Virus record (IMG/VR): IMGVR_UViG_3300001589_000003
Location: 12,279-76,278 of that record
Strand: one strand, 5' to 3'
DNA from: a virus
Length of the DNA: 64,000 bases
Below, one piece after another: positions 2,895 through 57,511 of this stretch. The position numbers and the translations under genes are program-made. Under the pieces are notes generated by a model that ran no database searches, was not told the DNA's origin, and saw only the letters and a list, made by a program, of their open reading frames with translations. Within the stretch, counting starts at the first letter, position 1. Each line of letters opens with the position of its first letter.

Positions 2895-3373
2895 CTTCCT
2901 ATGGTAAAACCACTTCCTCTTAAAAATTGTATTTTTCTATATATAGCCATACTTACTATCCTAGCCATACCTTTTGCTCCTCCCATCTCATCCACTGAAG
3001 GCCTCCATAAGGGTCTCTCTGGAACTCCAAATCCATACTCATGTCTTGTAGCAATTTCAGATATTGATATACCTCTATGGTTCATTGCAGAAACTGGTAC
3101 TCCAGCATAATATGTAAAGTTACTCCTCCAAGCTTTTATAGCATTATAATAAGCCTCGGTATCGACCAATATTCTTGGGTCCCCAGAATTAGTTCCAGGT
3201 GCTAATGGTAACCAAGATAGGTCCTGATTGTTGATATGACCTTTAACTATCTTCACTAACTTCTCAGCAGCTTTTCTTTGACCATATATTGATGAACTCT
3301 GTAACGCAGCAGGTAATGCCGCTAGCCCCATCTTTGCTCCAGTCCAATTACCCGTTAGTGTTATGTTTATCAT
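2891..3373 (-). CDS. Neck/tail-completion protein (HK97 gp10-like)
   Basis: LVDT and HEYG..VPERPLWRP motifs. Confidence 0.6.
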   Translation of the reverse strand: MINITLTGNWTGAKMGLAALPAALQSSSIYGQRKAAEKLVKIVKGHINNQDLSWLPLAPGTNSGDPRILVDTEAYYNAIKAWRSNFTYYAGVPVSAMNHRGISISEIATRHEYGFGVPERPLWRPSVDEMGGAKGMARIVSMAIYRKIQFLRGSGFTIGR

Positions 3374-3882
3374 TGATCTAGTTTTGATACCCCTGTTTTC
3401 ACTTCCTCTCTTCTCATAATAACTTGCATCAATAGGGGGTCTGTAGATGCTTGAGCTAGTTGAGTATCACCATCTGCTCGATATATTATACCGTTAATAT
3501 TGAATATGTCTTGTTCAGGCTTAAAATCGAAATACCCATCTGGGGTTGTATAACCTAAACCGGTTAGATATTTAATATTAAACATAACTATCAAGTTCTG
3601 ATCATCCAGATTACCTGTAGTCTTATGTTTAGTTATAGGCCAGGTTCTAAAATAGTTATAACCAACTAAAGCCATAAGTTCTATTTCTGTGTAGGTCTCT
3701 TCTTTCTCTTCATTATACATAGCTACACCAGCAGGAGCATGTCTCAACCATATTATGGTCTCTTGGTTATACTCCTCGTGGATATCATTAATTGCCTTCC
3801 TGTAGGCGTTCCATTTACTAAGTCCTATTTTTGGCATTATCCAAAGTTTTTGTTTAATATAGTTATAGCATCTGTTGGACAA
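3370..3882 (-). CDS. Head closure (stopper) protein; true start probably 3837
   Basis: Synteny; beta-rich; INGIIY motif. Confidence 0.45.
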   Translation of the reverse strand: MSNRCYNYIKQKLWIMPKIGLSKWNAYRKAINDIHEEYNQETIIWLRHAPAGVAMYNEEKEETYTEIELMALVGYNYFRTWPITKHKTTGNLDDQNLIVMFNIKYLTGLGYTTPDGYFDFKPEQDIFNINGIIYRADGDTQLAQASTDPLLMQVIMRREEVKTGVSKLDQ

Positions 3883-4697
3883 GGCTTAATTGCCTTCTGG
3901 GGTATTACTGGGTTCTTAGATAGTTGTCCACATATGGGTAGATATATTCTAAGTCTTTTAGCTAACATACATAACTCATTTGCCATGTTATCAAATGCTG
4001 ATTTACCATCGGGCCCAGACTTGAATAACTTCTCAAGTGAGGCAGCTCCATCAAACCATTCTGTATCTGTAGGGCCAGTAGTTATCTTCTTTACTGGTAC
4101 TCCATCGGATGTTGGGTCGTTATTACCAAAGAGTCCTATATAAGCTTTTCTAGCAACTAGATTTAAGAAGTCATAAATCACTAGTTTAGCGATTAGAAAA
4201 TTCACTAGAGGGGGCCAATTTGATTCCACATTAGACACTGTTATTATGGGATCAACTATATCTTTTAAGTACTCCCTCCAGTAGAATATTTTCATGTTTC
4301 TATAGTCCTCGTCTATGGTTATACCCTCTGGAGTTTCTGTATCTATCATTTCTTGTAATGATGTAGTGTAGTTATTCTCATCCACTACCCTGAAGTCCCC
4401 AGCTGATAGGGGCTCTGCTAATGTGGTATCAACCGGGGTATTGATAACTTTATATGCATGACTTCCAAGTACTCCTGTGTTGGCTGTTTCAAATGTGAAG
4501 GTTACTACATTATTACCTGTACCAGATATAACTCCATTTGCTAATGTAGTTTCAGATACAAACCCGTCATTAGAAAATACCAATGTTAGAGTACTACCCG
4601 TTAAATCTAGAGCTACACCATTCTGGGTATAGGTAAAAACCTTTACCTTCTTTCTATCCTTAAAGATTGTAAAATCCGATTGCTGTAAGTTGCTCAT
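3837..4697 (-). CDS. Head-tail adaptor with N-terminal BppU-like domain
   Basis: LDLTGSTLTLVF N-terminal motif; KKITTGPTDTEW; position. Confidence 0.5.
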   Translation of the reverse strand: MSNLQQSDFTIFKDRKKVKVFTYTQNGVALDLTGSTLTLVFSNDGFVSETTLANGVISGTGNNVVTFTFETANTGVLGSHAYKVINTPVDTTLAEPLSAGDFRVVDENNYTTSLQEMIDTETPEGITIDEDYRNMKIFYWREYLKDIVDPIITVSNVESNWPPLVNFLIAKLVIYDFLNLVARKAYIGLFGNNDPTSDGVPVKKITTGPTDTEWFDGAASLEKLFKSGPDGKSAFDNMANELCMLAKRLRIYLPICGQLSKNPVIPQKAIKPCPTDAITILNKNFG

Positions 4698-4897: not shown

Positions 4898-5003
4898 GAT
4901 GGATGTCTTTTCATTATTCTTAGGAAACTAGGATTATCAAGCTCATCGGTAAGATCGAACCTAAGTAGTTCAGTTATACCATCATATTATAAATATATAG
5001 CAT
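4894..5003 (-). pseudogene. Frameshifted gene remnant (MLYIYN / YDGITELLRFDLTDELDNPSF...)
   Basis: ATG follows a late promoter motif; the second frame ends in a TGA overlapping the next ATG; frames are offset. Confidence 0.3.
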
Positions 5004-5028
5004 TTAGTATTGTATGAGGTATACACAA

Positions 5029-5062
5029 CAAAAGGAGCTAACTGTTAAATTAACTCCTTTTA
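5029..5062 (-). terminator. Intrinsic terminator after the capsid genes
   Basis: aaaggag...ctccttt stem with a U-tract on the minus strand. Confidence 0.6.
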
Positions 5063-5079
5063 TAAATTAAGCTATTACC

Positions 5080-5541
5080 TTAATCCTTTTCAGGCTCTTC
5101 GTCCTCTAATAAGTACTCCTTCATCTCTTTGAGTTTTAACTCAGAAAATTTAGCTAGAGTATCTTCATCATGTTCAAAGTTCTCTTTGTAATAATCTATA
5201 GCATCATCCTTCTTTGTAAAGCTGTTGACTAATTGCTCAGCCTTTTCTTCTTCAGTAAGTTCCAGTGGTGCTTCAGGAGCTTTCACTTCCTTCTTGTCAT
5301 TAGGGTTTTCCTCTTTCTCCTTGGCAGCTTTTGCAAGTGCCTTCAATGCTTTATCTTCATCCATATCCTTGATGTGGTTATGTTTCAGAGCTACCGAAAT
5401 TCTTGCAGTGATTGGTCCTAAGTACTCAACCGGAGTTTTGTTACTTACTACCTTTAACTTGGATTGAGGATCAACAAAAACCGAAGCTCCATTTTTACTA
5501 CCCAATACAAAGTATCTTTTACTCTTTGTTTTTTTTGCCAT
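5080..5541 (-). CDS. Hypothetical protein downstream of the major capsid gene
   Basis: 153 aa ORF in late operon. Confidence 0.6.
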   Translation of the reverse strand: MAKKTKSKRYFVLGSKNGASVFVDPQSKLKVVSNKTPVEYLGPITARISVALKHNHIKDMDEDKALKALAKAAKEKEENPNDKKEVKAPEAPLELTEEEKAEQLVNSFTKKDDAIDYYKENFEHDEDTLAKFSELKLKEMKEYLLEDEEPEKD

Positions 5542-5565
5542 GATATATAAATTTTAGTTATTTAA

Positions 5566-6666
5566 TTACTCTATGATAACTTGTTCCAATGGATCAACAT
5601 CCATATAAGCAGGGAACCCATTTCCAGAGAATAGTATACTATCATCTATAATCACCCTAGCATCTCTGTACAAGATGCCAAACCCAGTAGTCAATGATGC
5701 ATAAGTTTCAATTTTTTGGTTTGAAACTATTTTATCAGATTCCACCAATAGAGGTTGAGCATTATACTTAATGATTGCTGATGTTCTATCAATAACCATT
5801 TGCTGATCTACAGGCATGCTACCATGAATATAGTATGCAGAACTTTGAGGTACTGGAGTTTTCAAGTCCAATTTCTTCTCAGTTGTACCAGTATCTCTTA
5901 ACTTGAATTCATCCAAGAATAAGGTTTCAATAGCAGCTTCTTCGCCACCAATGATCCCAAAAGGAGTTCTACCGATTCTAGCCATTCTAATCCAAACTCT
6001 TAACAAGTCTTTGTAAGACATTGATCCGGTTGTTTCAGTACCAACTACTGGAGCTGATTCCGAACCATCTGCCTGCTCACCATTAATAAGAGTATCAATC
6101 ATAAGAGCATCAATGCCTTGATTCAACTTAACCCCAAAGTCTTGGAGGAAGATACCAATTACGTTAATTGATACATACTGTACCACTTCGTAAGGTATTT
6201 GAATACCACGTCCCATCTTCTTAACCTTTAAGGTCTTTTGACCGAAACTTATAGTTCCAGTTGGAATGCTTTCACCTTCACCCACATATTTTGGTGTAGC
6301 ATCCGACATGTTTAAATGGGGAATAGTTACTGTAGGATTTGAGATAGTTTGTTCTGCTGCAATGAAGTCAGCCCAGATTGGAGATTTTCTCAATCCCAAA
6401 CGTAATGCGTCTCTTATAATTTCAGGGATCAACCATCTAGCTGATTCATCAGGTAAAGTGAAAAGATTCTGGATGGAATCAATACTAGCATTTAGGCCTA
6501 AATCATCATATAGAGCCTCCATACTAATTCCCCATTTCGATCTTACAAATTCCCCAATTGATATGTCCATTGGGTTATTAGCATCCTTTCGCATGGATTC
6601 ACAAGACATTACTACTTCTTGTAAACTATCCTTGTACTGCGATTTTCTGTATTGTTTAGTGTTCAT
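5566..6666 (-). CDS. Major capsid protein (HK97 fold)
   Basis: WLIPEII, YVGEGESIP and KKMGRGIQIPYE motifs; 366 aa; synteny. Confidence 0.85.
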   Translation of the reverse strand: MNTKQYRKSQYKDSLQEVVMSCESMRKDANNPMDISIGEFVRSKWGISMEALYDDLGLNASIDSIQNLFTLPDESARWLIPEIIRDALRLGLRKSPIWADFIAAEQTISNPTVTIPHLNMSDATPKYVGEGESIPTGTISFGQKTLKVKKMGRGIQIPYEVVQYVSINVIGIFLQDFGVKLNQGIDALMIDTLINGEQADGSESAPVVGTETTGSMSYKDLLRVWIRMARIGRTPFGIIGGEEAAIETLFLDEFKLRDTGTTEKKLDLKTPVPQSSAYYIHGSMPVDQQMVIDRTSAIIKYNAQPLLVESDKIVSNQKIETYASLTTGFGILYRDARVIIDDSILFSGNGFPAYMDVDPLEQVIIE

Positions 6667-10602: not shown

Positions 10603-13146
10603 TTATACGGGTTGAACTATTATACCTCTTAATTTTATTTTACGAACATGATTGGTTATTGCCTTTGCTAAGATAGCATCATCTGTATAACCATCATCGC
10701 TTGAGAGAAGATCATCAGTTTGGGGTCCTGAACCTTTCCCCATTGCTACAGCTTTGTTTTTCTCATCATATATAAAGGTGTAGGCTTCTTGCACGAATGC
10801 TTCATCCTTTATTATAATGTTATTCAGCCTGATGTCTTCCTCAAGTTCCCCTATTATTATGGGTCTATTCTTGGAAGTTGTATACCAACCTGGTATCTTC
10901 TCTTCTTTCGGCTTTCTTTTCTTTTTCTCCTTAACTAACTTAGTAGAGTAATAAAGCTTACTGTAATTCATCTCCTGTAGTTTAGAAGTTACTGCCAAAC
11001 CTATATCATTAGATTCTGGAGCTAGAATTGCTCTATGATATATGTTACCTAGTCCTGCCATTAGTATTGCAAGCTCATTTGGGGGTAGTTTACCCTTATA
11101 AGAACCATACTCTTCTCCTTTTTCATCCATTATGGATAGAGCCGAGTAATCTCGTGATCTACCAGTTGAAACGTCACCCCCTATTCCAAACCTTCTACCA
11201 TTCTCTGGTAACTTATAAATCTGTAAATTATCCCCCATTGAGGTTTTTACAGATTTTAGAACTTTATCAAATTGCCTATGTTTAGTTAGGTCTAATGGTA
11301 TGTAATCATTTAAGCTTTCTTCTATAGCTCTTATATCCAATAGATCAAATACTGAAGACCCTGACGTTAAAAAATCGCCGTCAATTTCTTGAGCAGTACG
11401 TCTTGGTCCCAATGATGCTGACATCTCATTATACCAATTTGGGAACTTCTTGGTAGTGTCATTATCCTTACCACGTTCTGGGTGCATCTCCCATTTAAGT
11501 CGTAATGGAGTAAACTCTCCACCGGAGCAAGCTTCTACCCATTTTTTGTGAAAGAAGTTCCCGATCCCATAGGGGGTGTTATGGTTAATAAAATGCGTTT
11601 TTGTTATATAAGATTCATCTTTTTCTACGCAAATGTCATAGATGGTGTCCTTAAATTTTCTCAGTACTACCAACTTACTTATTTTAACTCCTTTACATCT
11701 ACTACCATTTAGCACTCTAGTTACATAACTTGGGTGAATCCCTAAACTTTCTGCTATATCTTTTCTTCTTATCCCAGTATAGTGTTGTTCCCATATTTTA
11801 CCAATGGTCATGATATCGGGAAACCCTTTACCCGTATTGTTATTTAGAGTTAAGCCCCTAGAGTGTTTAACCGCTCTCTGGGCATTTTCTTTTCTAGTTA
11901 TAATTTGAAGGTTATTAACATGATCTATGTTCCTGGTATCATCCTTGTGATCTACTATATGACCCTTTGGTATCTCTCCTATAAAATGGGTAGCTACTAA
12001 TATTGATACTTTAAATTTTCTTGATTTTTGCTTACTCCAAAGAGATACTCTATGATATCCCTCTGAACTAACCATTAATCTCTTCTCCTTTCCAGAACCT
12101 CTATAATACACCTTACCATGGTTAGAGATAAGATAATTAGGGTAGCCTTTTATTTTTTCCTTTCTCTCCTTCTTAGGGGGTTTATTTAGGGGAGCAACTT
12201 TTAAATTATCAACTCCACTATCAAATGTAATAGTGTATAAATCCTTTTTGATTACCTGTTTTAAAGTTTTCCAGCCTTTAGTGGTTAATACCCTATGAGC
12301 TGGAGTTGCTTTTAGCCTCTGCCCCATGTCACTCTCCACTTCCCAGGTTTTAAGTTTTCCTTTGTTTACAGCTCCTAATACTCTTCTCCACTTACCTGTA
12401 TGTGATAATACCTCTAGTCCTAAGGCTTCCACATTATGTTTTCCAAAGTTCTTTGGGGCTATCATATCAACCCTAAAATTTCCACTTTTCCCAACTATTT
12501 CTGTATCACCTGTTATACAAGAATTAAGTATAGCTCTACCCCCAGTTGATAGTGTTGGAAATGCTGCAGCCCATATTTGATCTGCCCACCTAATGATCGC
12601 AGCTTCATCAATAACCAATAACGATAAAGCCTCAGATCGACCAGCTTCTTCTGTAGTTGGTATAGAGGTAATGAGAGAACCATTAGCGAACTCGATTTCG
12701 GAGGCAGTACCCAAGTCCTTAGTTCTCCCATTGATGATTTGTACTTGAAGGTGGTCAGGTAAGTTCCTATACATGAACTTAATCTTTCTCAATACCTTCT
12801 TAGCAACGGTGTCTTTTATGCTTATGATATTTATGTTCTTGTTTGAATGGAACATTGCATACCATAAGCAAAATAATGATATCAACTCTGTCAGCCCTGC
12901 CTGGCGGAATTTGAGTATAATATTAAACCTTTCTCTAATAAAGGAATAAAGTACAGCCCTTTGATATGGATATAATCCGAATTGGACTTTACCATAGACT
13001 GGGTTAATAACGTGTATAAAGTTGGAGAAAAAGAATGGGTCGGCAGCAGCTCTGGTTAAATCCTCGAATTCATCCGAAGACAAAGGTTTGTTTACAACCT
13101 TAGAAGCTCTACCCTTGGAGCCTATGTTTTCATCTGTATTATTCAT
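10603..13146 (-). CDS. terL: Terminase large subunit with intein
   Basis: ILKFRQAGLT Walker A, LLVIDEAA Walker B, IGGDVSTG and TDDAILA nuclease motifs. Confidence 0.92.
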   Translation of the reverse strand: MNNTDENIGSKGRASKVVNKPLSSDEFEDLTRAAADPFFFSNFIHVINPVYGKVQFGLYPYQRAVLYSFIRERFNIILKFRQAGLTELISLFCLWYAMFHSNKNINIISIKDTVAKKVLRKIKFMYRNLPDHLQVQIINGRTKDLGTASEIEFANGSLITSIPTTEEAGRSEALSLLVIDEAAIIRWADQIWAAAFPTLSTGGRAILNSCITGDTEIVGKSGNFRVDMIAPKNFGKHNVEALGLEVLSHTGKWRRVLGAVNKGKLKTWEVESDMGQRLKATPAHRVLTTKGWKTLKQVIKKDLYTITFDSGVDNLKVAPLNKPPKKERKEKIKGYPNYLISNHGKVYYRGSGKEKRLMVSSEGYHRVSLWSKQKSRKFKVSILVATHFIGEIPKGHIVDHKDDTRNIDHVNNLQIITRKENAQRAVKHSRGLTLNNNTGKGFPDIMTIGKIWEQHYTGIRRKDIAESLGIHPSYVTRVLNGSRCKGVKISKLVVLRKFKDTIYDICVEKDESYITKTHFINHNTPYGIGNFFHKKWVEACSGGEFTPLRLKWEMHPERGKDNDTTKKFPNWYNEMSASLGPRRTAQEIDGDFLTSGSSVFDLLDIRAIEESLNDYIPLDLTKHRQFDKVLKSVKTSMGDNLQIYKLPENGRRFGIGGDVSTGRSRDYSALSIMDEKGEEYGSYKGKLPPNELAILMAGLGNIYHRAILAPESNDIGLAVTSKLQEMNYSKLYYSTKLVKEKKKRKPKEEKIPGWYTTSKNRPIIIGELEEDIRLNNIIIKDEAFVQEAYTFIYDEKNKAVAMGKGSGPQTDDLLSSDDGYTDDAILAKAITNHVRKIKLRGIIVQPV
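11578..12519 (-). mobile_element. Intein (314 aa) containing an HNH homing endonuclease
   Basis: Begins CITGDT, ends INHN before T of TPYG; TPAHRVLT block B; YLISNHGKV and VDHKD...NNLQIITRKEN. Confidence 0.9.
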
Positions 13147-14737: not shown

Positions 14738-15733
14738 TTAAAAGTTTAGTTTATCTATTATTGATTTGAACCATACCCCTATTTCGTAAGGGGGTGATTT
14801 TGTTACTGTTGTTCTAGCTTTGTTAATACAGTACTCTGACCAATCCTCATCATACCATAGTTTAAAAGAGTCTGGAACTCCTTGTATTCTAGCCATCTCT
14901 CTAGGTGATAACATGTGACCCCAATGATTAAACTGTCTGTTAGCTTTCCTTACTGTAAATGGGTATGCGTTGGCAAAATTACGATATACCCCTGGTTGGT
15001 TCTTCATACGCTCCCTATTTACAGGCCAACGATTTTCCGCCTTGAATTCCGTTAACCAGAGCTTTCTAGCTTTCTTAACAGATACCCTAGAATCATCGCC
15101 ATAATATAGGTTAATCATTTTCTTGTCATCTTCAGTAACATGACATATACTAGGATTATATTCCTCTAATCCTTTTATCAATTCACCTGACGTTTTGTAG
15201 ATGAAGTCGGTCTTTGGTAGTTTAAATTTTTTTATTGTATTCTTGGGTAAATCCTTATGAACCCCCACTATTACTAATCTAACCCTAGTTTTTTGAGAGT
15301 TACCCCAAGCTGATACTGACTCCTTAAAAGTAACTGTTCTGTAGTTTAAGAACTCATCCAGTAGGGTTGGGTAGTGCTCAAGCATCTTGGGTAAATTCTC
15401 CATCATAAAGAACTGAGGTTGGTAGTAGTTGATAGAATCCACAAATGCTCTTAGACTAGCGTTCTCGCTCGGATCACTCATCTTCTTAGCCCTAGAGTAG
15501 GCTAGTACTGATGAATGCCCACAGTCTGGAGCTCCAATAATGATATCTACCCCATCCTTCCTATACCTGACATCTGTTGTTTCATCATAGGATACGTTAA
15601 AATTTAGGTTCCATTGTTTTTGGTGGGTGGTGTGAAACACAGTTCTTGGTTCTATATTACCAACAAGTTGGTTTCTAAATGGGTGAAGTATTACACCGTT
15701 ACCTCCACATACTCCTAATGTTTTCAAGCTCAT
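14738..15733 (-). CDS. Atypical C5 cytosine DNA methyltransferase homologue
   Basis: GAPDC (motif IV), MENL (VI), QKTRVR (VIII), LSPREMARIQG (IX); motifs I and X are divergent. Confidence 0.75.
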   Translation of the reverse strand: MSLKTLGVCGGNGVILHPFRNQLVGNIEPRTVFHTTHQKQWNLNFNVSYDETTDVRYRKDGVDIIIGAPDCGHSSVLAYSRAKKMSDPSENASLRAFVDSINYYQPQFFMMENLPKMLEHYPTLLDEFLNYRTVTFKESVSAWGNSQKTRVRLVIVGVHKDLPKNTIKKFKLPKTDFIYKTSGELIKGLEEYNPSICHVTEDDKKMINLYYGDDSRVSVKKARKLWLTEFKAENRWPVNRERMKNQPGVYRNFANAYPFTVRKANRQFNHWGHMLSPREMARIQGVPDSFKLWYDEDWSEYCINKARTTVTKSPPYEIGVWFKSIIDKLNF

Positions 15734-44144: not shown

Positions 44145-44639
44145 TTAGTTACTTTCTGAGTTTCTTAGAATAATTGTTTTTAAATCAGCAGGGCTATAAT
44201 TTACGCATTTAAGTGTTTTCTTATTATTGTCAAGGTCTATTACAAAGAATACTTCATCAACCGACACTATATCTGTATTTGGTATACCTTTTTGATTCGC
44301 GTACCACATTTGAGTTTCTTCAGCTTCTTCTATTGTTTTACAAGCTTTACTCATATTCGATCTGTGTACTTCATTGAATAACTCCCTAAATATGCTCCCT
44401 AATCCAAACTCTAATACCGAACCCGATAGTACATACTGTAAATCACATAATGCGTCCGCTACCTCAACCAAGTCTTTTTCCACAGTTGCATCCACTAACT
44501 CTTTCAGCTCCTCTGTTATTAAGCTTATTCTTAAGGCTACCCGATCTTCTGATGGTATCGTCGGATAAGTCTCTATGGAGTTGTTGGTAATTTTATGAAA
44601 CTCTCTAACTAAATTTAAGCTTTTCGGGTCTCTCATCAT
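44145..44639 (-). CDS. All-alpha NTP pyrophosphohydrolase (MazG/DR2231-like)
   Basis: EELKEL...EVADALCDLQYV...EVHRSNMSK. Confidence 0.8.
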   Translation of the reverse strand: MMRDPKSLNLVREFHKITNNSIETYPTIPSEDRVALRISLITEELKELVDATVEKDLVEVADALCDLQYVLSGSVLEFGLGSIFRELFNEVHRSNMSKACKTIEEAEETQMWYANQKGIPNTDIVSVDEVFFVIDLDNNKKTLKCVNYSPADLKTIILRNSESN

Positions 44640-48221: not shown

Positions 48222-48668
48222 TTAACGTTCATTTCTAATGTTTGCTGATATGGTTTGTAGTAAGTCCTTTCGTATTTCAAATGATCTTACACAAACCTCA
48301 AGTAAATCTTTAAGTTCTTCAAGCTCTAGGACACTGCGTTCCATTGACTTCACCTTTTTATCCTTTGTCACCAAGTAAGCCTCTGCCTCCTTTAATGATG
48401 TATACCCTTTGTTCTTCTTAACAATGGGTATCATTCTAGTTTTCTTAGCTGATAGTTTTTTGTGGAGTTCCTTATGTTTTATAAGTATCTTCTTATGAAG
48501 CATAGCTACAAATGCATAACTTGTAGCATGGTTCTTCAATTGCTTTATCATGTTTTCTTTGTCTATCTTTAACTCTTTATAGACATTGAATTCAAAGACC
48601 TCACCATTATAAGAGACCTTAATCTCCATAACTTTTGAGGTCTCTGCATACTTATATAAATTACCCAT
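48222..48668 (-). CDS. UvsY-like recombination mediator
   Basis: Helical; C-terminal RKDLLQTISANIR; synteny with SSB and RecA. Confidence 0.5.
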   Translation of the reverse strand: MGNLYKYAETSKVMEIKVSYNGEVFEFNVYKELKIDKENMIKQLKNHATSYAFVAMLHKKILIKHKELHKKLSAKKTRMIPIVKKNKGYTSLKEAEAYLVTKDKKVKSMERSVLELEELKDLLEVCVRSFEIRKDLLQTISANIRNER

Positions 48669-49285
48669 TAACCTAATATGTTTATTATTTTATTCTTTCT
48701 ATCATCCAATAGTAATGGGGTAATTAAATGTATTTTAGTATTACTATTCACCCTACTCATTTCTGCTTGAAACTGGTAATGATATAGGGAAAAAATATGG
48801 GTCACCATGTGTTGATAAACTTGAGAAGTTAACCTTGAACCATTATCTTCCACAAAATCAAACATAAAGGGTACTACAAATATGTGATCCAGTGGTATCA
48901 TAGCTTGAATACAAGCTTCATAAAAATCATGGTTTATTCCATCATTTTGATACAACCCAGCTTGTAACATATAATATACAAAGTTATCTATTGGGCTTCT
49001 ATCAGTAACAAACACTTGGTTGTCCTTTATAAGCTCTGACCTTCTGGTTAGTATCATTCTTTGCAACTCATATCCAAATTCTGGGTTATTGTGAGACTCC
49101 TTTATTACTTTAGCATGACCTTCCCGCCCTTCAACCCCAAACCTACTAGCTAGGTATTCTCTGTCGTCATCAGTTTTTAAATCCCCAGATGAACCAGACA
49201 AATGGGGTAAATTATAATGTTCTGCAACCCATTTTACTAGGGTTGTCTTGCCTGAGCCGCTGGCTCCAGAAAATGCAACTTTCAT
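48668..49285 (-). CDS. P-loop nucleotide (dNMP) kinase
   Basis: GASGSGKTT, TDRSPID, EDNGSR. Confidence 0.7.
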   Translation of the reverse strand: MKVAFSGASGSGKTTLVKWVAEHYNLPHLSGSSGDLKTDDDREYLASRFGVEGREGHAKVIKESHNNPEFGYELQRMILTRRSELIKDNQVFVTDRSPIDNFVYYMLQAGLYQNDGINHDFYEACIQAMIPLDHIFVVPFMFDFVEDNGSRLTSQVYQHMVTHIFSLYHYQFQAEMSRVNSNTKIHLITPLLLDDRKNKIINILG

Positions 49286-49300
49286 ATTATTATTATTATT

Positions 49301-51544
49301 TTAGTTTAACCATTTATTATAATCCTCCTTTATACTATAACCTTCTAACCCTGCCCAGTGTTTACCAACCTCAGCACCCATCTTTAAAAATACCTTTTCC
49401 ATCTTACAACCAAAGTACTTCTCTGATTCAGGGCTGGAGCATACCTCAACTATTTTAGGTACTGCTAAATGTATAAACTCTGGCTTAACATAGAAACCTA
49501 TTGAATCATGCACTGTATATGCTTGAGGTTTATATTTTTCTATGTCAGTGAGTTTTAACTCACCCTTATTAACTAAATCTCTTAATGCTATGGATGATAG
49601 TTGAGTAAAGTCTGAGGCTGCACTCTGAATAGGGGCATTGATTGAGTCCCTCATAGCCTTCCTTCTCACACCGTCATCATTGGAATATATGCTACCCAGC
49701 CTTCTCTTCCTACCAAAGATGTTCATAACATACCCATGTTTCATAACATATTTTTCTTGGTGTTTGAACCATGCTCTAACGCCTGGGTACATCTCCAACC
49801 ATTCGTTCTTAAAAATTTGAGCCTCTTCTTTAGTTACTATGTCTCCTGGTTCTGATAGGGTTCCAGCAAGCATCTTCGCTGATTGTTGATAGAGTATACC
49901 AAAGTTTATAACTTTAGCTCTCTTCTTTAGTTTGGTCCAGTATAGCCAGTCTGGATGGTCTTTGTTATCCAGTATAACTTTAACCTCATTATACATATCA
50001 AGTTTGCCAACTGATTTGCAGGCAGTAGCAACATGGATGTTATATTTTCTAGCAAAGATGTCTATCATTGCTTGATCATTTGCTATCTCTGCTACTACCC
50101 TTAACTCAGCCTGACCATAATCTACCTCTAATATTAGATGGTCTTTGGGTGGTACAAATGCAGTCTTTATCAATGGGGTTGTGGTAGCTCTAGGAATGTT
50201 CTGCATATTTGGGTCCCTAGATGATAACCTCCCAGTAACGGTGCCATGTATAAAGTAATTACCATGAAGTGTGTTGTGTTTTGTTAATTTATCTAAGATA
50301 CCTACCATGTAAGTCGAGTGCATCTTAGTTAACTCCCTATAGTCTAGTAGGTTCTGAATGAAACCAGTTTTATCTATAAGTCTTAGCTCTAATAAAACCT
50401 CTTCATCCGTGGAAGGTCTGTCCGTTTCTTGTTTAGTTTCCTTATCCTTGGTGTACTTTATAATCTTAAACCCTAACCCCTTCGGTGAGGTGAATAGGAG
50501 TTCTATCATTTGATTGGGTGATGCAAAGTTTACATCATCTACTACTTCATTCTTTGAAACTAACTCCCCTGCTATATACCTACTTATCTTCTCATATCTA
50601 TTCCTAACAGCCATATCCACATTTTTCATGGGCTCTTTTCCAGGCTTCAAAGGTTTGCCTTTCTTTATTAGTTTTATCTCTTCTTTTGTTTTAGTTATTA
50701 GCTTCTCTATGTGAGACTGTACTCTCCATTTCTGGAATTTCTTTATAACTTTTTCTTTCTTTAATAGGTCATGAGTTATAGCAATCTTTTTACCCTGTTC
50801 CTTTTCCACCTCGGCTAGATAGGGTTTATCTATCACCATCCCTACAAATTCTGATTCTGCTAGTACTCTAGTTTGCATCATGCACATGTTTCTAAATAGA
50901 TCATAAAACTTGTGCTTCCAGAGTAGTCTCTCCAATACTAACATCAACCTTAAAGTTAAATCGCAATCCAGTACGCAATATTTTGATAAGGATTTTATAG
51001 GTATATTCCCCCACCCCTTATACTTGGCTATCATACCATGTACTTCATCCTCATAGTCTGCAAACTCTGGTAGTAAAGATTTAACTAAGGATTTAAGATC
51101 ACTAGGTGGTGTCTCTTCTAAAAGGTATTTAGCAAGCATTGCATCGAAGAGTCTACCTCTCATCCTAATACCATACCTTAAGAACCATTTGTATTCAAAC
51201 TTTAAATTGAATGCCACCTTTATAACATTTGCATTCTCACATATATGTTTTCCGAAATATTTTAGTATTTTCTTAGCCTCTTTTCTAGTAAAGCATGAGT
51301 CCTTATGAAATAGAGGTATAGCATATCCAGCACCTGGTTGAAATGAAACTCCTAATATGGTAGGTTCATCTTTCTTGTATTGAAACCCCACTGGTTTCTT
51401 ATCCCCTTTAGATGTCAAGGGTCCTTCTGGTCCTGTAGCTTTAGTTTCAAAGTCAATGGATGCATACCCAGTCTCTTTACACCAAGCTACTATCTGTCTT
51501 ACCTCTTCAAAGGTAGATATTATTTTATACCTCTTTTTACCCAT
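49301..51544 (-). CDS. polA: Family A DNA polymerase with 3'-5' exonuclease
   Basis: DFET, TGRLSSRDPNMQNIP, DYGQAELR, AKVINFGILY, VHDSI. Confidence 0.93.
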   Translation of the reverse strand: MGKKRYKIISTFEEVRQIVAWCKETGYASIDFETKATGPEGPLTSKGDKKPVGFQYKKDEPTILGVSFQPGAGYAIPLFHKDSCFTRKEAKKILKYFGKHICENANVIKVAFNLKFEYKWFLRYGIRMRGRLFDAMLAKYLLEETPPSDLKSLVKSLLPEFADYEDEVHGMIAKYKGWGNIPIKSLSKYCVLDCDLTLRLMLVLERLLWKHKFYDLFRNMCMMQTRVLAESEFVGMVIDKPYLAEVEKEQGKKIAITHDLLKKEKVIKKFQKWRVQSHIEKLITKTKEEIKLIKKGKPLKPGKEPMKNVDMAVRNRYEKISRYIAGELVSKNEVVDDVNFASPNQMIELLFTSPKGLGFKIIKYTKDKETKQETDRPSTDEEVLLELRLIDKTGFIQNLLDYRELTKMHSTYMVGILDKLTKHNTLHGNYFIHGTVTGRLSSRDPNMQNIPRATTTPLIKTAFVPPKDHLILEVDYGQAELRVVAEIANDQAMIDIFARKYNIHVATACKSVGKLDMYNEVKVILDNKDHPDWLYWTKLKKRAKVINFGILYQQSAKMLAGTLSEPGDIVTKEEAQIFKNEWLEMYPGVRAWFKHQEKYVMKHGYVMNIFGRKRRLGSIYSNDDGVRRKAMRDSINAPIQSAASDFTQLSSIALRDLVNKGELKLTDIEKYKPQAYTVHDSIGFYVKPEFIHLAVPKIVEVCSSPESEKYFGCKMEKVFLKMGAEVGKHWAGLEGYSIKEDYNKWLN

Positions 51545-51956
51545 ATTTTTTTACATCTACTCCTGCTCTAAGTAACACTTTTAAAGGCTCTGTATCTCTG
51601 AACTCTTCTGAGTATTCTACAACCTTTATCCCAGATTGAATTATTGCCTCTGCACATTTTATACATGGGCTGTGTGTACAGTATATTGTTGCCCCTTGTA
51701 GTTTTATACCATTCTTTGCAGCAAAGTATATTGCATTAGCTTCAGCATGTATCGCTCTCTTGCAGGTCTCACCCAAAAAACAATTTATATCATTACATTC
51801 GTGGTCATCTTTAACTGGACCATTATACCCAGTAGCTATAATCCTATTTTCTATGGTTATTACTGATCCCACTTGTAACCTACCACATGTACCCCTTTGT
51901 GACATTAACTTTGCCATCTGTAGGTATAGGTCTCTTCTTGTTATTCTCTCAATCAT
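51537..51956 (-). CDS. dCMP deaminase
   Basis: TGYNG, HAEANAI, PCIKC. Confidence 0.9.
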   Translation of the reverse strand: MIERITRRDLYLQMAKLMSQRGTCGRLQVGSVITIENRIIATGYNGPVKDDHECNDINCFLGETCKRAIHAEANAIYFAAKNGIKLQGATIYCTHSPCIKCAEAIIQSGIKVVEYSEEFRDTEPLKVLLRAGVDVKKYG

Positions 51957-51973
51957 ATATCTAAATAGTATAT

Positions 51974-52732
51974 TTAGTAATTATCATAGACCTCAAAATC
52001 ACCTTGAAAGCAGTGTAGATTAGCTATATGCATATTTATATGCCCAGGTCTTAATCTCTTACCCACTCTACCCATGACATGGTATAATAACCTAACCGCC
52101 ATGTATATATCATCTCTAAAATGCCTGATAACATCACATGATCTAATGTAATATGTTATATCCATCCTACCATTTTTTACTTGAAATAGATACCCCAAAG
52201 TACATGGTACTCTCTGACCTCCTAATGGTCCTGTATCTTCTGGGAACCATATGGGTAAGAATGCTTTTCTAGTGTGTTTCTGGTCTTTCAATAGGTTGAT
52301 TACATCATCTAAATCTCCATACTCATACCTAATACCATGTAAGCTTAAATGTTTATGGGCTACGTGTTTAGGCCATATTCTTTCTGGGTAGGTATGAGAG
52401 AATTGCTCATCTTTTACATGTTTTGCGTTAGCTCTTACACCAAAAGGCCATCTTACATGAGATGGAGGAGGATTCAAGGGTTTACCTGATACCCTCTCTA
52501 AAAAATGCTCATCGGCCCATGGTAAATTGGGTTGGCATTGGATTACTAACTCATTGATATTGCTAGGTACTGGTGCTCTAAATGATATACCCAATACTTC
52601 TACCATCTTATCTAATGGAGTTGTGGATTGCCAGGAGTTACCTTGATGGGTTGTACCTGCTACTACTAAATGATCTTTACAAGCTTTTATAGCTCTACTT
52701 ATACTTGAGTACTCTTTTATGGTTGGTGTCAT
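51974..52732 (-). CDS. Thymidylate-synthase-fold enzyme 1, dCMP-type
   Basis: VPCT catalytic Cys; RSCDVIRHFRDD with Asp at the specificity position. Confidence 0.8.
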   Translation of the reverse strand: MTPTIKEYSSISRAIKACKDHLVVAGTTHQGNSWQSTTPLDKMVEVLGISFRAPVPSNINELVIQCQPNLPWADEHFLERVSGKPLNPPPSHVRWPFGVRANAKHVKDEQFSHTYPERIWPKHVAHKHLSLHGIRYEYGDLDDVINLLKDQKHTRKAFLPIWFPEDTGPLGGQRVPCTLGYLFQVKNGRMDITYYIRSCDVIRHFRDDIYMAVRLLYHVMGRVGKRLRPGHINMHIANLHCFQGDFEVYDNY

Positions 52733-53607
52733 CTCTTTCTAGTGTTATGTATTCTTAATTCTTGTGGGGTTTGTACATCTTTTGGAATTAAGTCTTGGTC
52801 AGGTCTAAGTTTTAAAGTCTTAGCCTTCATTGATTTAACTCCACTTATTGGTAAGCCATCCTTACCCTTCTGTATCTGCATTACTGACCTCCTGTTAACC
52901 CTAAACATTATTGATTTAGGGTCAGGGTGGTTCATGTATTCTTTGAATTTCTTTTTAACATTCACGTGAAACTTATAATCATCCTGATCTGTACCCTTTA
53001 ATGACTTTTTTAATAGCTTCATTATAGGTTTCACATTATTGTACATCACAAAACTCTCTGCTGTAATATAAAAGGATGGAGCAAATAAGTGCACCTCAAA
53101 TTCATTGTGACCATATATGTATTCCCCTATCCTTTGTACTAATAAGAAATCAAACAGTAACCTCTTAGTAACTTCGGATGTTCTGATCTGGAATACAAGA
53201 ATTGGTTTGGGTTGATAAGGTCTTTTAGTAAATGTAATTGCCACTAAGCAATCCTTACCTGATCCGTGAGAGTTGTCGAAGTGATAAGTATAGTTATACA
53301 TACTCGCTTTCTTAGCTACCCTCTCCGAGATAGTAGCACGTAAGAGATCAAGATAGTTAAAGTCTACATAATTATTCACTAGAGCAGTCCATTTTTGAAG
53401 AGAATACCCCAAGGTTATACCAAAGTCAAACTCTGGGTCAACCCATGCCTCCTCCATGGTTACATAGTTATTAAAGCTTAGCATCTTTGACCCTGCTAAC
53501 CCTCCTCCTGTTGGTGCTATCTTACCTTGCTCAAGAAAAAGATACTCATTGATACCCTGCCAACCTTTCTGTAGGTTTTTAAACTTTAGTTGTGTTATGT
53601 GATGCAT
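52729..53607 (-). CDS. Divergent thymidylate-synthase-fold protein 2
   Basis: KDCLVAITF and IRTSEVTKRLLFDF with TS-like spacing. Confidence 0.55.
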   Translation of the reverse strand: MHHITQLKFKNLQKGWQGINEYLFLEQGKIAPTGGGLAGSKMLSFNNYVTMEEAWVDPEFDFGITLGYSLQKWTALVNNYVDFNYLDLLRATISERVAKKASMYNYTYHFDNSHGSGKDCLVAITFTKRPYQPKPILVFQIRTSEVTKRLLFDFLLVQRIGEYIYGHNEFEVHLFAPSFYITAESFVMYNNVKPIMKLLKKSLKGTDQDDYKFHVNVKKKFKEYMNHPDPKSIMFRVNRRSVMQIQKGKDGLPISGVKSMKAKTLKLRPDQDLIPKDVQTPQELRIHNTRKR

Positions 53608-54295
53608 ATTCTTTTGATATGGTTTCTAGGGTTGAATAAATATTTAATGGATGAGCACCTACTGAATCTAAGAATTTAGTAAAGTATAGCCAAGCCTCCA
53701 TCAAGTTTTTACATAAAGTTTGGTAGTCTCCTCCCCACCCTTGAAGAGCTGACCTTAATACACATGCAAATTTAAACTGATCTACTTGGTTATGGTGATC
53801 AGTTTCTATTGAATATTTTCTACCCATCAAACCCAAGGTAAAATCTTTTTCTACATCCTCATCAGTGTAGATGGAGTAGGATGAGTAATTAGCTATCCTC
53901 ATGGTATCATCAAATATATTGGAATGCCTACCATAAGCTAAAGATGTTTTCAGAGCATCATCAAAAAATATACCTGATAAATTTCTTTCCCTCAGTAGTA
54001 TATCATAATACTCATTAATGTTTTCAGGCATTATGTTATTGTCTTTCATAAGTCCTATAAATACCCCCAAAGCTTTTGCTAGTGCTGTATTATAATCTTC
54101 TAATAGTTCCTTTACATCTGGTCCCTCCTCTGGGTTATAACCAGCATCAAATACATGTTGTATTTTGGATTGAATGTACCATGCTTCTGATAAATGAGTC
54201 ATTATACATACCTCAGCTCCTATATTACATTCAACTATTGGGTCTATAAACTCATAGATGCCTTCTAGTAACATACCCTTATTAAATAACTCCAT
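53579..54295 (-). CDS. Possibly degenerate all-alpha dUTPase/dCTPase-like protein
   Basis: Helical; YNTALAKALGVFIGL resembles an EElaDalhF helix without the acids; synteny. Confidence 0.35.
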   Translation of the reverse strand: MELFNKGMLLEGIYEFIDPIVECNIGAEVCIMTHLSEAWYIQSKIQHVFDAGYNPEEGPDVKELLEDYNTALAKALGVFIGLMKDNNIMPENINEYYDILLRERNLSGIFFDDALKTSLAYGRHSNIFDDTMRIANYSSYSIYTDEDVEKDFTLGLMGRKYSIETDHHNQVDQFKFACVLRSALQGWGGDYQTLCKNLMEAWLYFTKFLDSVGAHPLNIYSTLETISKEYASHNTTKV

Positions 54296-54781: not shown

Positions 54782-57511
54782 CTATTTTTTATAGTGTTCC
54801 TCTATCTGTAGTTTCTCATTCTTATAGGCTATAAGTCTATGTTTAGAGTGCTTTTTAAGGTAGTACCCCTCATCCCAAAAATCATCCAGCCATGTGTAGT
54901 CTTTGGATTGATCGGTTCTGGTGGCTCTACCCAGTATTTGTATAACATTTTCAAAGGAGTCACCCCCTCCAGCATTGATTAGTGCTTGCATTAGTGGAAA
55001 GTTTTTACCTCTCTTGAGTATGTATGTACCTATAAGAATATCTATCTTACCCTCCTTGTACCTCTGAACTACTTCTTTTCTATCGGGTCTTTTGTGGTGT
55101 ACCCAATCAACTACTAACCCCTCAAACCTTTCTGGGTATGCATCTATCATAGCCATCAATTTCCTAACATGGTTATGAAACTTTACTACTACTAGGATGG
55201 GTAATCTCTTAGCTCTCTTGTGAAACATTACTCTTCTTAGAACCTTACCATTTCTTTCATTGGATTGTATTATACCTAGATTCTCTTCTCCTAGGTAATC
55301 TTTGGGTATGTTAATTAAGGTATTACCCTCGTGAATATGTACCATCACCTCAGCTGAGTGCCCCTTATCCATTAGCTCTCGATTTCTAACCTCATGAATG
55401 ATAGGACCATACTGAGCTATGATCTGTTGGTTCTTTTCTTTTTTTCTCTTGTCTACGATGACTGATCCAGACAACCCCACTCTAACATAAGCATTGTAGG
55501 TGTAGTTTAATACAGTTTTATATGACTTGGATGTTCCTAGGTCACACTCATCAACAATAACTATCGGGTACTTAGCAAGCATGTTCTTAACAGCATGTAT
55601 TCTAGAGTAGGCTGTAGGTATCATAACTATGGTGAATGGTTTCCAAGAGATGGGCCTGTCTGCACATACTACTCCGATATCTTCCTTGGGTATAAAGTCG
55701 GCCATTTCCTCAACAGCTTGGTTAAATAGTTCCTTTGAGTTGACTAGATATAGGGTAGGTTTATTATAGACAGTATATATACCAGCAGAAGTTATCGTGT
55801 TGTGGTTTATAAAACCATTACCTATATAAGTATTACCATCGGGAACCTCTATATCATAACATAAATCCTCTCCCAAGCTTAGTTTTTTTATGAAGTCCCA
55901 AAAAATATTGGGGTTTAGGTAAGTTTCTAAAATCCTATACTCTTTTAGGTCTTTTAAATCACTAACATCACCCAGATAGAGTTTTAAAACTTCTTTACTT
56001 ATATTGGTACCTCTACGCATATACCTACTTATTGGTATTTTACTCTTACGTTTAGTTTTATCTCGTAATACCCTGAGTAGATTGTTAGCCTCTTTAGGAA
56101 TTATGTTTATGGGTTTATTCGATATACCAATAAAGTTTTTTAGCCTTTGTTCCTTTCTAGCTAATCTAAACCCTACTTCATAGTAAAATGTTTCTAAAAA
56201 TGAACCCGATATTCTTAACCTATAAGCTGTACCTATTTTCTTAATACCCCTATGGGTCCAACTTGTCTTCTTTATATCAAGCCTAGAAACAATTCCTAGA
56301 TTTAATAACATTTGTTGAACATCATACATACTATTTTTACTTACAGAGGTAATACTAACTTCTTCTACCTTTCTACCAACTCCTGAAGTACCATCAGTAT
56401 CAAAATACCCTTGTAAATAAGCTGTTTGAACCTCTTTGGGGGACTCTAAGATAACTCTAGGTACTCTTTTGCTATGAGAGTTGTTCTTAAGCTCCGGCAC
56501 TATATTAAATAATTCCTCTAATGTTTTTGAACTTTTTTGAATCCTATTTAAATTTACCCTTCTTCCTTTTCTTGGCTCTTCTATATTGGTATCAATATTT
56601 AGTTTATTTTTTAATACCCTTTTTATAGTTTCTAGTATATAAATATCATCCTTATGAGAGCTTATTGCAAATCTTTTTTTAGTTATATACCCATCCCCAT
56701 GCAAAGCTCCTAGTACGTAAGCTAAATCTCCATCTAAACTAACCCCCATTATTTTTTTGGGTTGCCCAAAACATTGTTGGTTATAGTATATAGGTATAGT
56801 GTTACTTGTTTTTAAATTTGAAACCTTTTCCCAACTTAATAGCCCATTAGGTTTTACTATTTTAACTCTGTGATTTTCATAGCCTGAAGTTAAAACATAG
56901 CCTTTATTGGTTATAATTTTTATTGTTTTAATAATGCCAGATTTTAGGTAGTGGTTGGTTTTTTTATATCCATCCCCAGTTTCTATTGATAGTTTCATAT
57001 CCACCTCTTTATTTATTACCATGTTTGGTACTGCTAAATCCTCTATCTTTAGTAGCCCCTTACCTTTAATAGATAAATAGGTATCATACTTACAACATTT
57101 ACCAAAGTTTGTGGCTCCAAATATTATGCCTCTAGGAAAAGGTAGTTTACCAAGTTTATTATTAAATAGAGACATTAATGACTCTCCTTGGTAATCCCTT
57201 AATTTAAATTTGTTGTTAAGTGTTTTGGATAGTTTTTCTGGTCTTATTGGAAATTCCCTCTGGTCCACTATCTTGTACTTTTTATCCAAGGCGTTTAGTG
57301 TTTCCAATAGGTGAGGAACTTTACCTGTGGCTATGTAGCCAGCATCTGTTATGAATTTTATAAAGCCATCCCATGAACCGTTCTTGAATGATGGAGCATA
57401 GAATGCACCTTTAACTCTAACTCTCATACTGTCCTGCTTTCTCAACCTTATCATTAGCTTTGCAGAGCAATCTATTTTTGATTTGTTATTCTTTAAGAAT
57501 ATAGTTACCAT
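54782..57511 (-). CDS. SF2 helicase (UvsW-like) with intein
   Basis: LRDYQ, ATNFGK|T, VDECD, GLSGS, QILGRATR. Confidence 0.88.
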   Translation of the reverse strand: MVTIFLKNNKSKIDCSAKLMIRLRKQDSMRVRVKGAFYAPSFKNGSWDGFIKFITDAGYIATGKVPHLLETLNALDKKYKIVDQREFPIRPEKLSKTLNNKFKLRDYQGESLMSLFNNKLGKLPFPRGIIFGATNFGKCCKYDTYLSIKGKGLLKIEDLAVPNMVINKEVDMKLSIETGDGYKKTNHYLKSGIIKTIKIITNKGYVLTSGYENHRVKIVKPNGLLSWEKVSNLKTSNTIPIYYNQQCFGQPKKIMGVSLDGDLAYVLGALHGDGYITKKRFAISSHKDDIYILETIKRVLKNKLNIDTNIEEPRKGRRVNLNRIQKSSKTLEELFNIVPELKNNSHSKRVPRVILESPKEVQTAYLQGYFDTDGTSGVGRKVEEVSITSVSKNSMYDVQQMLLNLGIVSRLDIKKTSWTHRGIKKIGTAYRLRISGSFLETFYYEVGFRLARKEQRLKNFIGISNKPINIIPKEANNLLRVLRDKTKRKSKIPISRYMRRGTNISKEVLKLYLGDVSDLKDLKEYRILETYLNPNIFWDFIKKLSLGEDLCYDIEVPDGNTYIGNGFINHNTITSAGIYTVYNKPTLYLVNSKELFNQAVEEMADFIPKEDIGVVCADRPISWKPFTIVMIPTAYSRIHAVKNMLAKYPIVIVDECDLGTSKSYKTVLNYTYNAYVRVGLSGSVIVDKRKKEKNQQIIAQYGPIIHEVRNRELMDKGHSAEVMVHIHEGNTLINIPKDYLGEENLGIIQSNERNGKVLRRVMFHKRAKRLPILVVVKFHNHVRKLMAMIDAYPERFEGLVVDWVHHKRPDRKEVVQRYKEGKIDILIGTYILKRGKNFPLMQALINAGGGDSFENVIQILGRATRTDQSKDYTWLDDFWDEGYYLKKHSKHRLIAYKNEKLQIEEHYKK
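55799..57097 (-). mobile_element. Intein (433 aa) with LAGLIDADG endonuclease in Walker A
   Basis: Begins CCKYDT, ends INHN before T; LGALHGDG and LQGYFDTDG. Confidence 0.9.

Follow-up and report, generated by a model that had tools for sequence, protein, structure and literature searches.

Homologues of thymidylate synthase (TS) that act on cytosine nucleotides have been described in phages with modified DNA. Exchange of Asn177 for Asp (Escherichia coli ThyA numbering) is the established switch from deoxyuridine monophosphate (dUMP) to deoxycytidine monophosphate (dCMP) as substrate, and positions 177 and 147 best separate the TS homologues of modified-cytosine contigs (eLife PMC8670742). 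On such contigs, Asp177-type TS genes are enriched together with a deaminase in cis, a PRA-PH pyrophosphohydrolase and PolA (bioRxiv 10.1101/2024.12.05.627091; eLife PMC8670742); 70% of the dCMP-deaminase genes have a TS homologue no more than 3 kb away, and their most frequent neighbours include PRA-PH and PolA (bioRxiv 10.1101/2024.12.05.627091). Five of seven tested TS homologues of this kind made 5-methyl-dCMP (5mdCMP), and one linked deaminase converted 5-methyl-deoxycytidine triphosphate (5mdCTP) to deoxythymidine triphosphate (dTTP), making deoxythymidine monophosphate (dTMP) synthase dispensable (bioRxiv 10.1101/2024.12.05.627091). Residue 143 correlates with the product, a hydrophobic residue with methyl and an acidic residue with hydroxymethyl, and D169N marks the flavin-dependent 5-hydroxy-dCMP (5hodCMP) synthases (PMC13326640). 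Here we describe two adjacent TS-fold genes, TS2 and TS1, in a 64,000-nt stretch of viral DNA (the window), which comprises bases 12279-76278 of the IMG/VR virus record IMGVR_UViG_3300001589_000003 (76,278 bp; estimated completeness ~90%). On balance, we favor the view that this pair is the core of a conserved phage cassette that alters cytosine nucleotides at C5 before replication, with TS2 working together with TS1.

The window has a G+C content of ~36%, and its minus strand carries nearly all genes. The closest deposited records are metagenomic phages (PolA identity 36-40%), and there is no close cultured phage. The two genes are arranged as follows:

TS2, 52729-53607, minus strand: 292 residues; a cryptic TS-fold protein whose Cys120, Arg142 and Asp153 are invariant and whose C terminus is extended by a basic region.
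TS1, 51974-52732, minus strand: 252 residues; a divergent ThyA-family enzyme.

A preliminary description of this DNA had reported a tandem pair coupled by a 4-nt overlap. This arrangement was confirmed by the coordinates and strand of the open reading frames (ORFs) and by the junction aga-ATGA-cac, in which the TGA stop codon of TS2 and the ATG of TS1 share 4 nt. The strings RSCDVIRHFRDD and RTSEVTKRLLFD, read in TS1 and TS2, respectively, were found in the translated ORFs.

TS1 matches Pfam family PF00303 over residues 137-247 with 33.8 bits (cut-off 24.3), which marks it as a divergent member, and it matches phrog_160, "thymidylate synthase," at 1.7e-28. Its residues were placed in E. coli ThyA numbering by HMMER alignments to T4 TS, L. 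casei TS and MilA; against T4 TS (1tis) and the L. casei enzyme, RSCDVIRHFRDD aligns over the motif RS.DVFLG.PFN. In this register, TS1 Cys177 corresponds to ThyA Cys146, Arg197-Ser198 to Arg166-Ser167, Asp200 to Asp169, and Asp208 to Asn177, and Arg174, Thr178 and His204 of TS1 stand at the positions of Leu143, His147 and Gly173, respectively. Asp208 is present in 61 of 62 orthologues, with a gap in the remaining one, and in 9/9 cultured homologues; Asp200 is likewise kept in 61/62 orthologues. Cys177, Arg197, Asp200 and Asp208 are invariant or nearly so across the orthologues, and Arg174 is invariant. Moreover, one TS1-type signature recurs in all sampled hosts (E79, R80, Y115, R118, R155, R174, P176, C177, T/S178, R197, S198, D200, H204, D208 and H240).

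The AlphaFold2 model of TS1 has a pTM of 0.81, with residues 108-136 poorly modelled, and is about equally close to AfhB, MilA and many ThyA structures (Z 17-18.5, root-mean-square deviation [rmsd] ~3-4, 204-226 aligned residues). AfhB (Z 18.5) ties with MilA (Z 18.2) and ThyA as the top match. The model covers only residues 1-219 of the 264 residues of E. coli ThyA, and this end point of the alignment implies that TS1 is without the C-terminal segment that closes over the folate. Thus, three features expected of a ThyA enzyme, Leu143, His147 and the folate-closing segment, are absent from TS1, and a fourth, the Asn177 that selects dUMP, is replaced by Asp in both TS1 (Asp208) and TS2 (Asp153).

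By these residues, TS1 fits none of the published product rules. With Arg at 143 and Asp at 169, the product rule yields no call for either a methyl or a hydroxymethyl group. TS1 does not carry the full marker set of an Xp12-type dCMP methylase, as it has Asp177 and, at position 143, Arg instead of a bulky hydrophobic residue. The catalytic Cys and Asp177 of the T4 gp42-type hydroxymethylases occur in both proteins (Cys177 and Asp208 of TS1, Cys120 and Asp153 of TS2), and the acidic residue at 143 that marks the gp42 type is absent from both (Arg174 and Gly117).

TS1 proteins form two subtypes. Subtype A, which includes the window copy, has H113, I/M196, C199, R203 and F242 and accounts for 19 of the 21 loci with a deaminase. 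Subtype B has Y113, Q196, S/A199, T203, G206 and Y242, accounts for 46 of the 47 loci without a deaminase, and retains the ThyA-like Gln165 and Tyr209. Because the subtypes are clades in which relatives share both traits, the deaminase pattern holds at the level of clades only and is not independent evidence.

TS2 had no match in Pfam, NCBIfam or PDB (single-sequence phmmer and a PDB profile search), and PF00303 matched neither TS2 nor 33 distant TS2 relatives. Its sole family match was phrog_34294, of unknown function, at 9.8e-7. The AlphaFold2 model, built from an alignment with 48 homologues, has a pLDDT of 92.5 and a pTM of 0.89. Foldseek searches with this model ranked TS-fold proteins first, namely AfhB of phage HY126, T4 dCMP hydroxymethylase and MilA (E 7e-5 to 8e-4). 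In VIA-align comparisons, the closest chain was AfhB (9iqu; Z 13.8, rmsd 4.1, 182 aligned residues), followed by MilA (Z 12.5) and ThyA (Z ~10). Overall, the model aligned with TS-fold chains over 165-182 residues at Z 9.6-13.8, and all 396 chains with Z of at least 8 belong to the Foldseek TS list. Independent hints of a TS fold for TS2 came from the ESM Atlas. The TS fold that the preliminary description had proposed for both proteins is supported, in TS1 by the Pfam match and high Z scores and in TS2 by the confident model and its matches; the Foldseek check suggested there returned the TS fold for the TS2 model.

Comparison of the TS2 and TS1 families by hhalign gave E 0.08 with the closer TS2 alignment and E 4e-4, at a probability of 35%, with a more diverse one. 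The resulting register pairs C120, R142, E145 and D153 of TS2 with C177, R197, D200 and D208 of TS1, which correspond to C146, R166, D169 and N177 of E. coli ThyA. The 11-residue spacing from Arg to Asp in TS2 agrees with this profile-profile register. At the Leu143 and His147 sites, TS2 carries Gly117 and Leu121, respectively. Asp at the Asn177 position had been claimed for both proteins, and this is supported by the HMMER alignments for TS1 and by the profile-profile register for TS2. TS2 had also been said to keep a Cys at the catalytic position and to lack the PC, RSxD and HxY motifs; indeed, it has KDC in place of PC and RTSE in place of RSxD, and the HxY block is missing. Cys120, Arg142 and Asp153 do not vary among the orthologues that span these positions (n = 57), among 33 relatives with 16-24% identity, or among 9 cultured-phage homologues. 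Glu145 is conserved except in the actinophage members, which have Tyr at this position and are also without Arg149.

DSSP strings and a relaxed hhalign alignment suggest that TS2 runs collinearly with TS1, except for a stretch of ~55 residues that it lacks between the second strand and the helix preceding the central sheet. In TS1, the counterpart of the missing stretch carries the family-invariant motifs PNLPWADEHF.ERV...NPPPS...WPF; in E. coli ThyA, this region carries the folate-pocket residues Glu58, Trp80 and Trp83. On this low-confidence alignment, most of the folate-pocket segment appears to be gone from TS2. At the other end of the protein, residues 195-292 form an additional helical, basic extension that is not related to the ThyA C terminus. 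TS2 tails (e.g., window 52729-53020 and those of P0066, P0082, P0091, P0294, P0316 and P0338) are basic, with a median net charge of +5 over the last 40 residues vs +2 in TS1, and AT-hook-like GRP/RGRP motifs occur in 10 of 212 TS2 members. These tails and motifs are sequence-based hints of tethering to DNA or the replisome.

We found 311 word-indexed homologues of TS2 and 182 representative clusters (E <=1e-3) among 1.84 billion representatives. A functional name was absent from every homologue record looked up, and the family signature GY..KW / G.C[LM] / R....(7)...D was present in each listed member. In cellular genome collections, TS2 occurred only in two contigs of metagenome-assembled genomes, 77 and 82 kb long, which resemble whole phage genomes; the TS2 family is restricted to viruses. 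A hidden Markov model scan detected no further TS1 or TS2 paralogue in the genome, and literature searches found no published description, Pfam family or named family for TS2 or for a second TS-fold partner.

The order helicase / p155 / (p238) / TS2 / TS1 / (deaminase) / PolA / (kinase) / p148 / SSB / RecA is fixed in 80 IMG/VR loci. Of the 76 loci that extend far enough to show it, 75 have TS1 after TS2. The exception, L032, has no detectable TS1 and contains a 191-residue ORF (3331-3906) between TS2 and the deaminase. The same 4-nt TS2/TS1 overlap occurs in 31/75 loci, and the spacing is at most 30 nt in 45/75.

The pair is also present in cultured phages. We sampled Pseudomonas PMBT14, Mycobacterium NoShow and FF47, Streptomyces KimJongPhill, Gordonia Gibbous and CherryonLim, Serratia Tlacuache, Microbacterium Huwbert and C. 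perfringens D1 (n = 9). In all nine, the "hypothetical protein" encoded directly upstream of the TS1-type gene is a TS2 member (E 4e-66 to 5e-9). Several of these carriers show 1- or 4-nt TS2/TS1 overlaps, and most have a kinase and a nucleoside triphosphate (NTP) pyrophosphatase before the pair and a deaminase and PolA after it. Members of the TS2 family phrog_34294 in cultured phages include those of C. perfringens CPD4/D1, Pseudomonas PMBT14 (gp48) and Mycobacterium FF47 (gp45), all of them annotated as hypothetical proteins. In the metagenomic phage MW202777 (L082), an unannotated TS2-like frame (...YRTTELFKKFPADL..., ~4990-5770, frame 2) lies upstream of a gene annotated "pyrimidine hmase," and this phage further encodes ThyX, a deaminase, tmpK and an NTP-PPase.

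In the window, the pair is surrounded by genes for nucleotide metabolism and replication:

p238, 53579-54295, minus strand: divergent all-alpha NTP pyrophosphatase of the dimeric dUTPase (dUTPase_2) type; the gene shares 29 nt with the start of TS2.
Deaminase, 51537-51956, minus strand: dCMP/deoxycytidylate deaminase family, 139 residues (PF00383, 1.5e-23; phrog_174, 3e-48).
PolA, 49301-51544, minus strand: family A DNA polymerase, 747 residues, assigned by tblastn to annotated phage DNA polymerase I genes and by synteny in 80 loci.
Kinase, 48668-49285, minus strand: P-loop protein resembling deoxynucleoside monophosphate (dNMP)/thymidylate kinases, 205 residues (PF13521, 3.9e-9; PF01712 dNK, 1.6e-5; phrog_2107 thymidylate kinase, 8e-15).
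Second NTP pyrophosphohydrolase, 44145-44639, minus strand: MazG/PRA-PH type, 164 residues (PF01503, 4.5e-17; phrog_671 nucleotide pyrophosphohydrolase, 1.3e-31).

The deaminase gene starts 17 nt after TS1 and overlaps PolA by 8 nt. The order after TS1 is deaminase, PolA, dNMP-kinase-like gene, a conserved 148-residue gene, SSB, RecA, flap endonuclease, MazG/PRA-PH and Mre11/Rad50-like. The window copy of p238 has no Pfam match. In 46 loci, the gene immediately preceding TS2 is its positional orthologue and is related to it by jackhmmer search. PF08761 (dUTPase_2) is matched by 26 of 31 aligned p238 members (the window copy and 30 orthologues), and the p238 profile matches the C. jejuni dUTPase 1w2y. 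We regard p238 as a candidate dCTPase/dUTPase that may feed dCMP to the pair. No glucosyltransferase was present among the ORFs scanned, and no arabinose or sugar genes were seen.

Other features of the genome lie farther from the pair. A gene of the PF00145 C5 cytosine DNA methyltransferase family (64 bits; 14738-15733, minus strand) adjoins a CHAP-domain gene and the terminase; it is the third Cys-nucleophile pyrimidine-C5 enzyme of the genome, and a PF00145 homologue is present in 5/5 complete relatives. The large terminase (10603-13146, minus strand) contains an intein with an HNH/HTH insert according to Pfam, and the 909-residue helicase (54782-57511, minus strand) has an apparent intein-like insert, judged by eye. 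PolA is split into two pieces in related loci L004, L022, L040, L065, L066 and L076.

We found no canonical ThyA, ThyX or dihydrofolate reductase (DHFR) in the genome by a profile search; these negatives are weak, because the search with PF00303 at first overlooked TS1, which passes hmmscan. In each of the five complete relatives, which have terminal repeats, PF00303 matches a single gene, the TS1 orthologue, and neither ThyX nor another ThyA was found. In Huwbert (L096, 2060-5104), the TS2-like gp65 and TS1-type gp67 are followed by a canonical ThyA (gp68; LPPCH ... PFN) and then a deaminase. The presence of a canonical ThyA beside the pair suggests that the pair is not a source of dTMP. This agrees with the earlier judgment that neither protein looks like a true dTMP synthase, TS1 in view of its Asp at 177, Arg at 143, Thr at 147 and missing C-terminal segment, and TS2 in view of its own Asp at 177 and its apparent lack of most of the folate-pocket segment.

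Taken together, this phage gene set probably swaps cytosine for a chemically altered cytosine. From the folds, residues, gene order and co-occurrence documented above, we infer substrates, a product, complex formation and DNA modification as follows. The dUTPase_2-like p238, the MazG-type enzyme, or both would cut deoxycytidine triphosphate (dCTP) and deoxyuridine triphosphate (dUTP) to the monophosphates, draining dCTP. TS1, retargeted to dCMP by Asp208, would add a one-carbon group at C5 by using Cys177 as the nucleophile. The P-loop kinase would re-phosphorylate the TS1 product, and PolA would build the modified nucleotide into DNA. Where present, the deaminase would channel some of the cytosine pool toward thymine nucleotides, as the phage appears to have no dTMP synthase of its own.

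TS2 would bind a cytosine nucleotide through Arg142 and Asp153 and attack it through Cys120, although it would have no normal folate site. In TS enzymes, which are obligate dimers, each active site borrows arginines from the partner chain, and TS2 may therefore pair with TS1 as the other chain of a TS-type dimer. Otherwise, TS2 may carry out a separate Cys-dependent step on the same nucleotide. Within the proposal of a cytosine-modifying cassette, each of these two roles receives somewhat less than half of our confidence. A heterodimer and a two-step action would each be consistent with the strict co-occurrence of the genes, their fixed order and the many 4-nt overlaps.

Several observations weigh against this proposal. 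The invariant Arg at 143 of TS1 fits neither the hydrophobic rule for methyl products nor the acidic rule for hydroxymethyl products. The deaminase is missing from about two thirds of related loci. If every cytosine were substituted at C5, the PF00145 methyltransferase would be left without a substrate. Literature searches on the C. perfringens phages, PMBT14, Tlacuache, GTE2 and Muddy found no DNA-modification data. The sequence link between TS2 and TS1 is weak (hhalign probability 21-35%), so that the register of TS2 leans on the fold and the motif spacing. Three further points speak specifically against a heterodimer: the genes are separated by more than 150 nt in 28/75 loci, no TS2-TS1 fusion occurs among 266 family members, and at the site that aligns with the partner-donated Arg126, only about half of the TS2 orthologues have Arg.

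A competing explanation, which we consider doubtful, is that TS2 is a free-standing enzyme with its own chemistry that does not physically need TS1. Such an enzyme could use its Cys to attack C6 of a 5-substituted dCMP made by TS1 and exchange or remove the substituent, could act as an AfhB-like flavin hydroxylase, or could make a second modified cytosine. This explanation is consistent with the full Cys/Arg/Asp set of TS2, with the flavin-dependent dCMP hydroxylase AfhB as its best structural match, with the seeming loss of the folate-pocket segment, and with the wide gene spacing just mentioned. However, the D169N marker expected of a 5hodCMP synthase is absent (Glu145; Tyr in the actinophages), and the occurrence of TS2 beside a TS1-type gene in 75/76 informative loci and 9/9 sampled cultured phages also weighs against it.

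It is improbable that the cassette serves solely as an alternative thymidylate route, in which TS1 converts dCMP to 5mdCMP and deamination then yields dTMP or dTTP; in this case canonical DNA would be packaged and TS2 would be an accessory factor. Such a route would account for the failure to find ThyA or ThyX in the phage, for the deaminase gene adjoining TS1, and for the retained gene of the C5 DNA methyltransferase family, which is compatible with DNA whose C5 positions are unmodified; published 5mdCTP deaminases do yield dTTP (bioRxiv 10.1101/2024.12.05.627091). Yet the loci that have the pair without a deaminase and the presence of both the pair and a canonical ThyA in Huwbert speak against it. 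Moreover, the NTP pyrophosphatases and kinase of the cassette fit pool replacement, and 5-methylcytosine also enters DNA in published cases. Least probable of all is a TS2 without catalytic activity. It could then have a regulatory or scaffolding role, anchoring nucleotide synthesis to DNA or the replisome, or it could be a decoy that enters and poisons ThyA dimers of the host. The apparent loss of the folate-pocket segment, the basic C-terminal tails with their occasional GRP motifs, and the location of the gene within the replication module would suit such a protein, but if TS2 neither bound nucleotides nor catalyzed a reaction, the strict invariance of Cys120, Arg142 and Asp153 in very distant members would be difficult to account for.

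One specific form of the proposed cytosine-modifying cassette, which we judge unlikely on present evidence, is that TS1 and TS2, either as the two obligate chains of one enzyme or as closely coupled enzymes of successive steps, produce an undescribed cytosine modification other than 5-methyl, 5-hydroxymethyl or 5-hydroxy; with its folate pocket lost, TS2 would activate the pyrimidine again through its Cys so that a further reaction can take place. If so, the thymidylate-synthase superfamily would gain a new type of reaction, and hundreds of phages would have it, among them relatives of Mycobacterium FF47 and NoShow (genus Mapvirus). More generally, modified bases decide the survival of phages against restriction and CRISPR defenses and affect the sequencing and cloning of phage DNA, and their pathways are a source of enzymes for biotechnology. 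TS2 accompanies this TS1 type in phages of Actinobacteria, Pseudomonas, Serratia and Clostridium and in uncultured gut and environmental lineages. If the reaction requires TS2, TS homologues expressed alone could miss an activity or yield the wrong product.

Of the known systems, the neighborhood described in the MetaGPA papers, whose cultured model is Xanthomonas phage Xp12, shares with the window Asp177, a changed residue 147 and the lack of a separate dTMP synthase, as well as a deaminase directly downstream of the TS gene, PolA beside it, and a PRA-PH gene in the module. The 17 nt between TS1 and the deaminase fall well within the 3-kb distance used in those papers, and the PRA-PH gene, ~7 kb away, lies beyond it. 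In contrast to the window, no second TS-fold gene is described there, and for the Arg at 143 of the window TS1 the methyl/hydroxymethyl rule gives no call.

The T4 pathway consists of the gp56 dCTPase/dUTPase, the gp42 dCMP hydroxymethylase (1b5d, 6a9a), the cd deaminase, the gp1 dNMP kinase and the td TS. It uses the same enzyme classes and logic as the window, including an Asp-type TS-fold enzyme and two TS-fold genes in one phage. However, the second TS-fold enzyme of T4 is a normal dUMP-specific TS, whereas both members of the window pair carry Asp, and TS2 is stripped down and invisible by sequence. Moreover, gp42 has Asp/Glu at position 143, where the window TS1 has Arg.

The 5-hydroxy-dCMP synthases HY126 AfhB (9iqu, 9iqc), RB69 gp48 and DLP3 gp80 (PMC13326640) resemble the pair in another respect. 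AfhB, a compact TS fold that acts on dCMP and has Asp177, is the top structural match of TS2 and, tied with others, of TS1. However, sequence identity is 10-16%, and D169N is found in neither window protein (Asp200 in TS1, Glu145 in TS2). We tried TS2 as a 5hodCMP synthase and rejected its membership in this group, as position 169 is Glu or Tyr in the family.

Finally, MilA, the CMP 5-hydroxymethylase of mildiomycin synthesis (5b6d, 5jnh), is the best PDB sequence match of the TS1 profile (E 1.9e-7) and shares with TS1 the nucleophile Cys followed by Thr, Arg at 172 and Asp at 177. MilA differs in having Asp at 143, in using a ribonucleotide substrate, and in belonging to a bacterial antibiotic pathway; the MilA material covered here shows no TS-fold partner protein. 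Across these comparisons, the logic of the cassette and its TS1 are of a published kind, and it is the constant partner, TS2, for which our searches found no paper or named family.

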